Source: Escherichia coli (GTDB lineage: Bacteria > Pseudomonadota > Gammaproteobacteria > Enterobacterales > Enterobacteriaceae). Taken from it: a stretch of 1,821 nt of DNA. Under the pieces are notes generated by a model that saw only the letters and a list, made by a program, of their open reading frames with translations, was not told where the DNA came from and did no database searches. The stretch is from NCBI RefSeq assembly GCF_003334315.1, contig NZ_QOWR01000112.1; one strand, written 5' to 3'. Both the position numbers and the translations under genes were made by a program. Below, in pieces: positions 340 through 1,821 of the stretch; position 1 is the first letter of the stretch; every line of letters starts with the position of its first letter.

Positions 340-1224
340 CTACTGTGTCAATGCAGCCAACAGCTTAACCATCGCGGGCGTCACCTGCTGTGTTTCATAA
401 ACAATATATAAATCTGCAGGGATGCGCTGTTTGAGCGGACGGAAAATGACACCTGGCCAGTTCATTTGTGCGTAGCTGTCCGCTATCAATGTGATACCAA
501 TGCCCATACTGACCATAGCGAGTACCGTTTGCGGTTCATTAACTTCGCGAATAACAACCGGTGAAAATCCCACCTGCTGGCAAACTCGCTGCAAAAAATC
601 CCAGTCAGTGTAAACGGGCGGCATTGTAACAAAATACTCGTCACGTAGCGCTTCCAGCGGGACGGTGGAAAATGATGAGAGATGATGCTCTTCAGGCATC
701 GCCACCAGAAACGCCGATTCATGCAACCGTAAGCTGGTAAAACCAGTCGGTGGTTCTGTCGCCATTCGCCAGATCCCGGCATCAAGTTCGCGGCGTTCCA
801 GCAAGGCCATTTGCATCGCGGGCATCTTTTCGCGAAAAAGAACGTCAACGTTAGGATTTTCCCTGAGGAATCGCCGCATAACCGGGCGCATCCGTCCCCA
901 CATTGCCGTTCCCACTACGCCGAGTTCAATCCGCCCTGCTTCTCCCCGACCTATTTGTTCAATCCGAGCCAATACATTATTAGCATTCACCAGCAATCGA
1001 CGCGATTCTTCCATCAAGATTTTGCCCGCGTGTGTCAGTACGACGCTGCGCGAATGGCGAATAAAAAGCTGCGTGCCGAGTTGATTTTCCAGCTCTTTAA
1101 TATGAATGCTGAGCGGAGGCTGAGACATATTTAAACGCGCTGCTGCGCGGCCAAAATGCAACTCTTCCGCTACGGCAAGAAAATAACGGAGCAACTTAAG
1201 ATCTGTTCTGTATACGCGTTCCAT
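340..1224 (-). CDS. xapR: LysR-family transcriptional regulator (294 aa), most likely the xanthosine operon regulator XapR
   Basis: The ORF-track frame is 340-1239 (299 aa). The N-terminal region (LKLLRYFLAVAEELHFGRAAARLNMSQPPLSIHIKELENQLGTQLF) is a typical LysR-type winged-HTH and the remainder a LysR substrate-binding domain. I place the start at the second ATG (1222-1224, MERVYRTDL...) because GGAG (complement of 1234-1237) sits 9 nt upstream of it, while the first ATG at 1237-1239 has no Shine-Dalgarno. The xapR call rests on recalled sequence and on position next to lysV; it was not verified by search. Confidence 0.8.
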   Translation of the reverse strand: MERVYRTDLKLLRYFLAVAEELHFGRAAARLNMSQPPLSIHIKELENQLGTQLFIRHSRSVVLTHAGKILMEESRRLLVNANNVLARIEQIGRGEAGRIELGVVGTAMWGRMRPVMRRFLRENPNVDVLFREKMPAMQMALLERRELDAGIWRMATEPPTGFTSLRLHESAFLVAMPEEHHLSSFSTVPLEALRDEYFVTMPPVYTDWDFLQRVCQQVGFSPVVIREVNEPQTVLAMVSMGIGITLIADSYAQMNWPGVIFRPLKQRIPADLYIVYETQQVTPAMVKLLAALTQ

Positions 1225-1253
1225 AATTAAGTGCTCCATATAATAAATACATC

Positions 1254-1296
1254 GTATTAAATTATCATGGCATAAAGTATTTCACCACCAGATATC
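1254..1296 (-). promoter_or_regulatory. Candidate sigma70 promoter for the regulator gene (weak, speculative)
   Basis: On the minus strand a -10-like GATAAT (complement of 1261-1266) lies about 37 nt upstream of the ATG at 1224, in an AT-rich interval. The best -35 candidates 16-18 bp upstream (GTGGTG/GGTGGT/TGGTGG) are poor. Picked by eye, not scored. Confidence 0.2.
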
Positions 1297-1368
1297 CGAC
1301 ATACATAAACACAATGGATAATATACCCGGTAATACATTTGGTACAGGAATAGGCAAGCGCACGATTG

Positions 1369-1391
1369 GGTAATGACTCCAACTTATTGAT
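1369..1391. repeat. IS1 terminal inverted repeat (insB-proximal end, IRR)
   Basis: About 23 bp, GGTAATGACTCCAACTTATTGAT, matching the IS1 right terminal inverted repeat as I recall it. The insB stop codon (complement of 1384-1386) lies inside it, as in canonical IS1. Confidence 0.85.
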
Positions 1392-1821
1392 AGTGTTTTA
1401 TGTTCAGATAATGCCCGATGACTTTGTCATGCAGCTCCACCGATTTTGAGAACGACAGCGACTTCCGTCCCAGCCGTGCCAGGTGCTGCCTCAGATTCAG
1501 GTTATGCCGCTCAATTCGCTGCGTATATCGCTTGCTGATTACGTGCAGCTTTCCCTTCAGGCGGGATTCATACAGCGGCCAGCCATCCGTCATCCATATC
1601 ACCACGTCAAAGGGTGACAGCAGGCTCATAAGACGCCCCAGCGTCGCCATAGTGCGTTCACCGAATACGTGCGCAACAACCGTCTTCCGGAGCCTGTCAT
1701 ACGCGTAAAACAGCCAGCGCTGGCGCGATTTAGCCCCGACGTATCCCCACTGTTCGTCCATTTCCGCGCAGACGATGACGTCACTGCCCGGCTGTATGCG
1801 CGAGGTTACCGACTGCGGCCT
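1384..1821 (-). CDS. insB: IS1 transposase InsB reading frame, 3' portion; the N-terminal part and the insA frameshift region lie beyond the window
   Basis: The ORF-track frame 1384-1761 ([16 protein letters not shown]...[13 protein letters not shown]) matches the C-terminal ~125 aa of IS1 InsB. The complement of 1762-1821 matches IS1 sequence immediately upstream of the MDEQ codon, so I extend the frame to the window edge. One residue (YDRLRKT versus recalled YDSLRKT) suggests an IS1 variant. Confidence 0.9.

Follow-up and report, generated by a model that had tools for sequence, protein, structure and literature searches.

Translation of xapR in an Escherichia coli lysV–xapR region probably begins at the second of two in-frame ATGs, as already annotated

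In E. coli K-12 MG1655 the gene order is valU-valX-valY-lysV, followed on the opposite strand by xapR, xapB and xapA, and XapR is the LysR-type transcriptional activator of xapAB in xanthosine catabolism. K-12 xapR (b2405, NP_416900.1) is annotated as 885 nt encoding 294 aa, and the same 885-nt xapR is given by PGAP in five other E. coli genomes, that is, in every PGAP record inspected. Typical LysR-type regulators (BenM, CatM, OxyR, HcaR and AlsR) have an architecture in common with XapR, consisting of an HTH_1 domain plus a LysR_substrate domain.

The stretch of DNA analyzed here (the window, 1,821 bases) is the E. coli lysV–RtT–xapR–xapX–IS1 region. Its best matches are E. coli chromosomes at 98–100% identity, and the features annotated under those matches are a tRNA-Lys, an RtT sRNA, xapR, a DUF1427 family protein and an IS1 transposase. 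The K-12 xapR locus has the same flanking genes (lysV, xapX and xapB) as the E. coli matches. Since the region and its annotated features match the E. coli and K-12 locus, the minus-strand open reading frame at 340..1239 (299 aa) is xapR. The translation aligns over its full length with the NCBIfam XapR equivalog NF007439 (531.3 bits against a curated cutoff of 290; model positions 1–296 of 296 with residues 6–299 of the long ORF), and carries Pfam HTH_1 (PF00126) at residues 14–73 of the long ORF (E 2e-23, model positions 1–60 of 60) and LysR_substrate (PF03466) at residues 98–297 (E 4e-39). As judged from its sequence, the predicted protein has every feature of XapR and of the LysR family that could be tested. 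Of 5,426 complete E. coli genomes, only 4,081 contain the xapR start region (window 1160–1300); this part of the xap locus is therefore lacking in about one strain in four.

At the far end of the window from the xapR start lies a tRNA-Lys (lysV, 1–75) whose first base is missing at the window edge. Rfam RF00005 detects this tRNA and flags it as cut off at the 5′ end; owing to the same missing base, ARAGORN reported no tRNA in the window. Positions 58–118 and 214–274 form a perfect 61-nt direct repeat, which comprises the tRNA-Lys 3′ end and a hairpin; with the T-run that follows it, the hairpin looks like an intrinsic terminator. These repeats bracket an Rfam RtT RNA match at 106–231 (46.7 bits, gathering score 45), and this arrangement is the known tRNA-linked repeat architecture.

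On the other side of xapR, the window differs from K-12 in that an IS1 element cuts xapX and parts xapR from xapAB. Closely matching E. coli genomes (95–100% query coverage at 98–100% identity, in separate pieces) carry xapR-xapX-xapB-xapA, and within the window a xapX remnant alone is visible before IS1. This 3′ remnant of xapX (DUF1427/TIGR03510) spans 34 codons at 1265..1368 on the minus strand and matches TIGR03510 at profile positions 18–48 of 49 (E 1e-10), while other strains have an intact 159-nt DUF1427 gene as annotated by PGAP. Its stop codon, a TGA at 1267..1265, is separated by 25 nt from the first ATG of the xapR frame. IS1 occupies 1369..1821 and runs past the end of the window, with a terminal inverted repeat (GGTAATGACTCC...) starting at 1369 and a transposase ORF on the minus strand that matches an annotated IS1-like IS1A family transposase. 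We placed the junction by alignment with K-12, where homology ends at 1368; the cut in xapX thus lies 129 nt before the first ATG and 144 nt before the supported start. A search of 5,426 complete E. coli genomes found the exact IS1/xapX junction in none of them. In other strains IS1 lies between xapB and xapX or inside xapR, and the A/T-rich xap region therefore seems to be a recurrent target of IS1. The truncation of xapX by IS1 is the only unusual feature near the xapR start.

The question addressed here is where in this frame translation begins. The minus strand reads ...TATTTATTAT ATG GAG CAC TTA ATT ATG GAA CGC GTA TAC..., and a sequence-only reading of the window had proposed that the second of these two ATGs starts the gene. 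Both ATGs can be read directly from the minus strand, in frame and five codons apart. The first (1239..1237) opens the longest ORF (340..1239, 299 aa), has no Shine-Dalgarno (SD) sequence and is probably not the start. From the second (1224..1222), the coding sequence runs over 340..1224 on the minus strand, giving 885 nt, or 294 aa plus stop. That reading also saw a GGAG 9 nt ahead of the second ATG, and this holds: GGAG lies at 1237..1234 on the minus strand, is separated from the second ATG by exactly 9 nt (CACTTAATT), and its stretch is predicted to form a duplex with the 16S rRNA 3′ end at −5.6 kcal/mol. Upstream of the first ATG the predicted duplex reaches only −0.6 to −1.6 kcal/mol, in agreement with the claim that this codon has no comparable ribosome-binding site. 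One detail needs correcting, in that GGAG overlaps codon 1 (the G of ATG) and codon 2 (GAG) of the long frame, and not codons 2 and 3.

A GGAG at 9 nt lies within the 5–10 nt spacing of a canonical SD-led start, and the second ATG fits this pattern; a spacer of 9 nt behind a 4-nt SD is among the longest usually seen, which counts against it. Among the 66 ATGs on both strands of the window, five (7.6%) have an equally good duplex at −18 to −5, and two (3%) have GGAG in that interval. At these background rates the SD motif alone is moderate evidence and not decisive.

When one genome per GTDB species was scanned for orthologs, 33 Enterobacterales loci with 60–96% protein identity were recovered, and for each the DNA upstream of the aligned start was read independently of annotation. 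In the 23 closer loci, from Escherichia sp. MOD1-EC7003, Pseudocitrobacter, Citrobacter, Klebsiella, Silvania, Enterobacter and Atlantibacter, an ATG followed by ME(R/P/Q) stands at the position of the second ATG in every case (23/23), and 19 of the 23 have GGAG 9–10 nt ahead of it. None of the 33 orthologous loci has an ATG at −15, where the first ATG stands in E. coli. The residues MEHLI, whose conservation in homologs had been named beforehand as an observation that would overturn the second start, are likewise conserved in 0 of 33. The nearest relative, Escherichia sp. MOD1-EC7003 (96% identity), has ACG at the first-ATG position and keeps the GGAG.

Two further features of the orthologs bear on whether the stretch between the ATGs is coding. 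In four loci an in-frame stop precedes the start by one or two codons, at −3 in one (L022) and at −6 in three (L010, L017 and L035). The GGAG-to-ATG spacer (alignment A2) measures 9 nt in Escherichia and Pseudocitrobacter and one base more, 10 nt, in the remaining genera, and because a 1-nt indel is incompatible with coding, the spacer is non-coding. These observations weigh against the reading in which translation starts solely at the first ATG (1239..1237), making XapR 299 aa long. The first ATG is the first in-frame ATG after an upstream stop, so the longest-ORF rule picks it, but it has no SD, its extra residues are conserved nowhere among the 33 loci, and both the upstream stops in four orthologs and the indel in the corresponding stretch tell against it. 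In addition, curated annotations all use the second ATG, and the family model starts at residue 6. We regard a 299-aa XapR made from the first ATG only as very improbable.

Annotation points the same way as the orthologs. The K-12 DNA around the start codon is 100% identical to the window, and since the sequences are identical here the annotated start is the second ATG; the annotated K-12 protein is the 294-aa product from that codon. Position 1 of the NCBIfam XapR model corresponds to residue 6 of the long ORF, which is the first residue of the 294-aa protein. Agreement among K-12, PGAP and NCBIfam is partly circular, because annotations propagate among sources, and these are not fully independent. 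Taken with ortholog conservation, the K-12 and PGAP annotation and the NF007439 boundary support the predicted product length of 294 aa, not 299 aa.

We put the probability that xapR translation starts at the second ATG (1224..1222) by SD-directed initiation, giving a 294-aa XapR, at about 0.9. The GGAG at 1237..1234 would pair with the 16S rRNA 3′ end, and a 30S subunit bound there would set its P site 9 nt downstream, on the second ATG, to yield the 294-aa protein. The first ATG would then be an accident of the E. coli lineage whose final G doubles as the first base of the SD, and the five MEHLI codons would be untranslated leader. That ribosomes use only the second ATG is what we infer from sequence and conservation.

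It is possible, if unlikely, that both ATGs are used in E. coli, with 294 aa as the main product and a minor 299-aa isoform arising by SD-independent initiation on the A/U-rich leader. The first ATG was kept in all five E. coli genomes examined (K-12 and four chosen from lower-identity matches), and from these sequences it looks like a fixed feature specific to the E. coli lineage and not a sequencing quirk. The 25 nt preceding it are rich in A and U, and a moderate unpaired probability (0.58) is predicted for the last 20 of them; an A/U-rich leader of this kind, probably unstructured, can support SD-independent initiation. The first ATG itself, however, has a predicted unpaired probability of 0.08 in a 140-nt fold, lacks an SD, and would be occluded by a ribosome bound at GGAG. 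It is also missing in all other species, with ACG in the nearest Escherichia sp., and its absence outside E. coli therefore indicates no conserved function. There is a small chance that the codon, having arisen within the E. coli lineage by an ACG to ATG change, gives a low-level 299-aa isoform; if it did, five extra residues would stand ahead of the DNA-binding domain, and the N-terminus of this LysR regulator would have been extended recently and in this lineage only.

We also considered a hairpin that would sequester the SD, in which GGAGCACUUAA (the SD plus spacer) pairs with UUAAGUUGCUCC (codons 9–13) with one bulge (window 1170–1240, minus strand). This candidate was rejected, with a z of −0.97 and 33 of 200 shuffles folding as well, and RNAalifold gave no consensus structure over 18 orthologs.

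The sequence-only reading had also argued against the first ATG on the grounds that it lies only about 20 nt from AT-rich promoter-like sequence. This argument fell away. The putative sigma-70-like consensus match (1240..1268, minus strand) has a −35 ATGATA at 1268..1263, a 17-nt spacer and a −10 TATTAT at 1245..1240, and the −10 directly abuts the first ATG instead of lying some 20 nt off. One such site occurs in the window against a mean of 2.3 in shuffles; this is no more than chance and therefore carries no weight. The same match underlies another explanation, in which transcription from TATTAT would begin at about 1234–1231, leaving GGAG and the first ATG out of the mRNA and the second ATG with a very short leader and little or no SD. 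Although the window has no other sigma-70-like match and this one sits right against the first ATG, a single match does not exceed the number in shuffles, the −10 hexamer is changed to TTTTAT in two E. coli strains, and the GGAG is kept across genera, which argues for a place in the mRNA. We consider such a short leader quite unlikely, more so than a minor second isoform, and it alters the mechanism and not the choice of start codon.

Published genome-wide data were searched for the transcription start and the N-terminus. Neither xapR nor its coordinates gave a match in the supplements of Cappable-seq and dRNA-seq genome-wide TSS studies, and XapR was not found in the TRAINSPOTTER N-terminomics supplements. 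Genomic SELEX has placed an RpoN holoenzyme binding peak in the K-12 xapB-xapR spacer and assigned it to xapR, at position 2520564 in that paper's own coordinates (PMC8743547). The spacer with this peak corresponds to about 1240–1370 of the window, and the peak is too coarse to place a transcription start.

A start at the second ATG is correct but already known and restates the existing annotation; because the reference annotations already use this start, nothing new for biology follows. Its relevance is to annotation hygiene only, in that a longest-ORF or six-frame call would make XapR five residues too long. The comparative approach taken in this analysis, which looks for an indel between SD and ATG, for stop codons in frame ahead of the start, and for an upstream ATG that sister species have lost, could serve for other disputed start codons.

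Compared with its relatives, XapR shows some movement of the start codon. The ten most distant orthologs (L023, L024, L026–L032 and L036, around position 1490 of these loci; from Buttiauxella, Cedecea, Limnobaculum and Pragia) represent this regulator at 60–70% identity with the same ...RVYRTDLKLL N-terminal core, and each starts at an ATG or GTG of its own, three codons ahead of the position used in E. coli, with its own (A/G)GGAG or GGGG 4–5 nt upstream. The start codon has therefore drifted in the XapR family, but never to the E. coli first-ATG/MEHLI position. Alignments with other LysR models and with LysR-type regulators of solved structure start only at residue 13 of the long ORF, and the 294-aa XapR already has a longer N-terminus than most relatives. 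In BenM, CatM, OxyR, HcaR and AlsR, residue 2 aligns with residue 8 of the 294-aa protein, and XapR thus carries a short N-terminal extension (MERVYRT) relative to typical LysR-type regulators even when translated from the second ATG.
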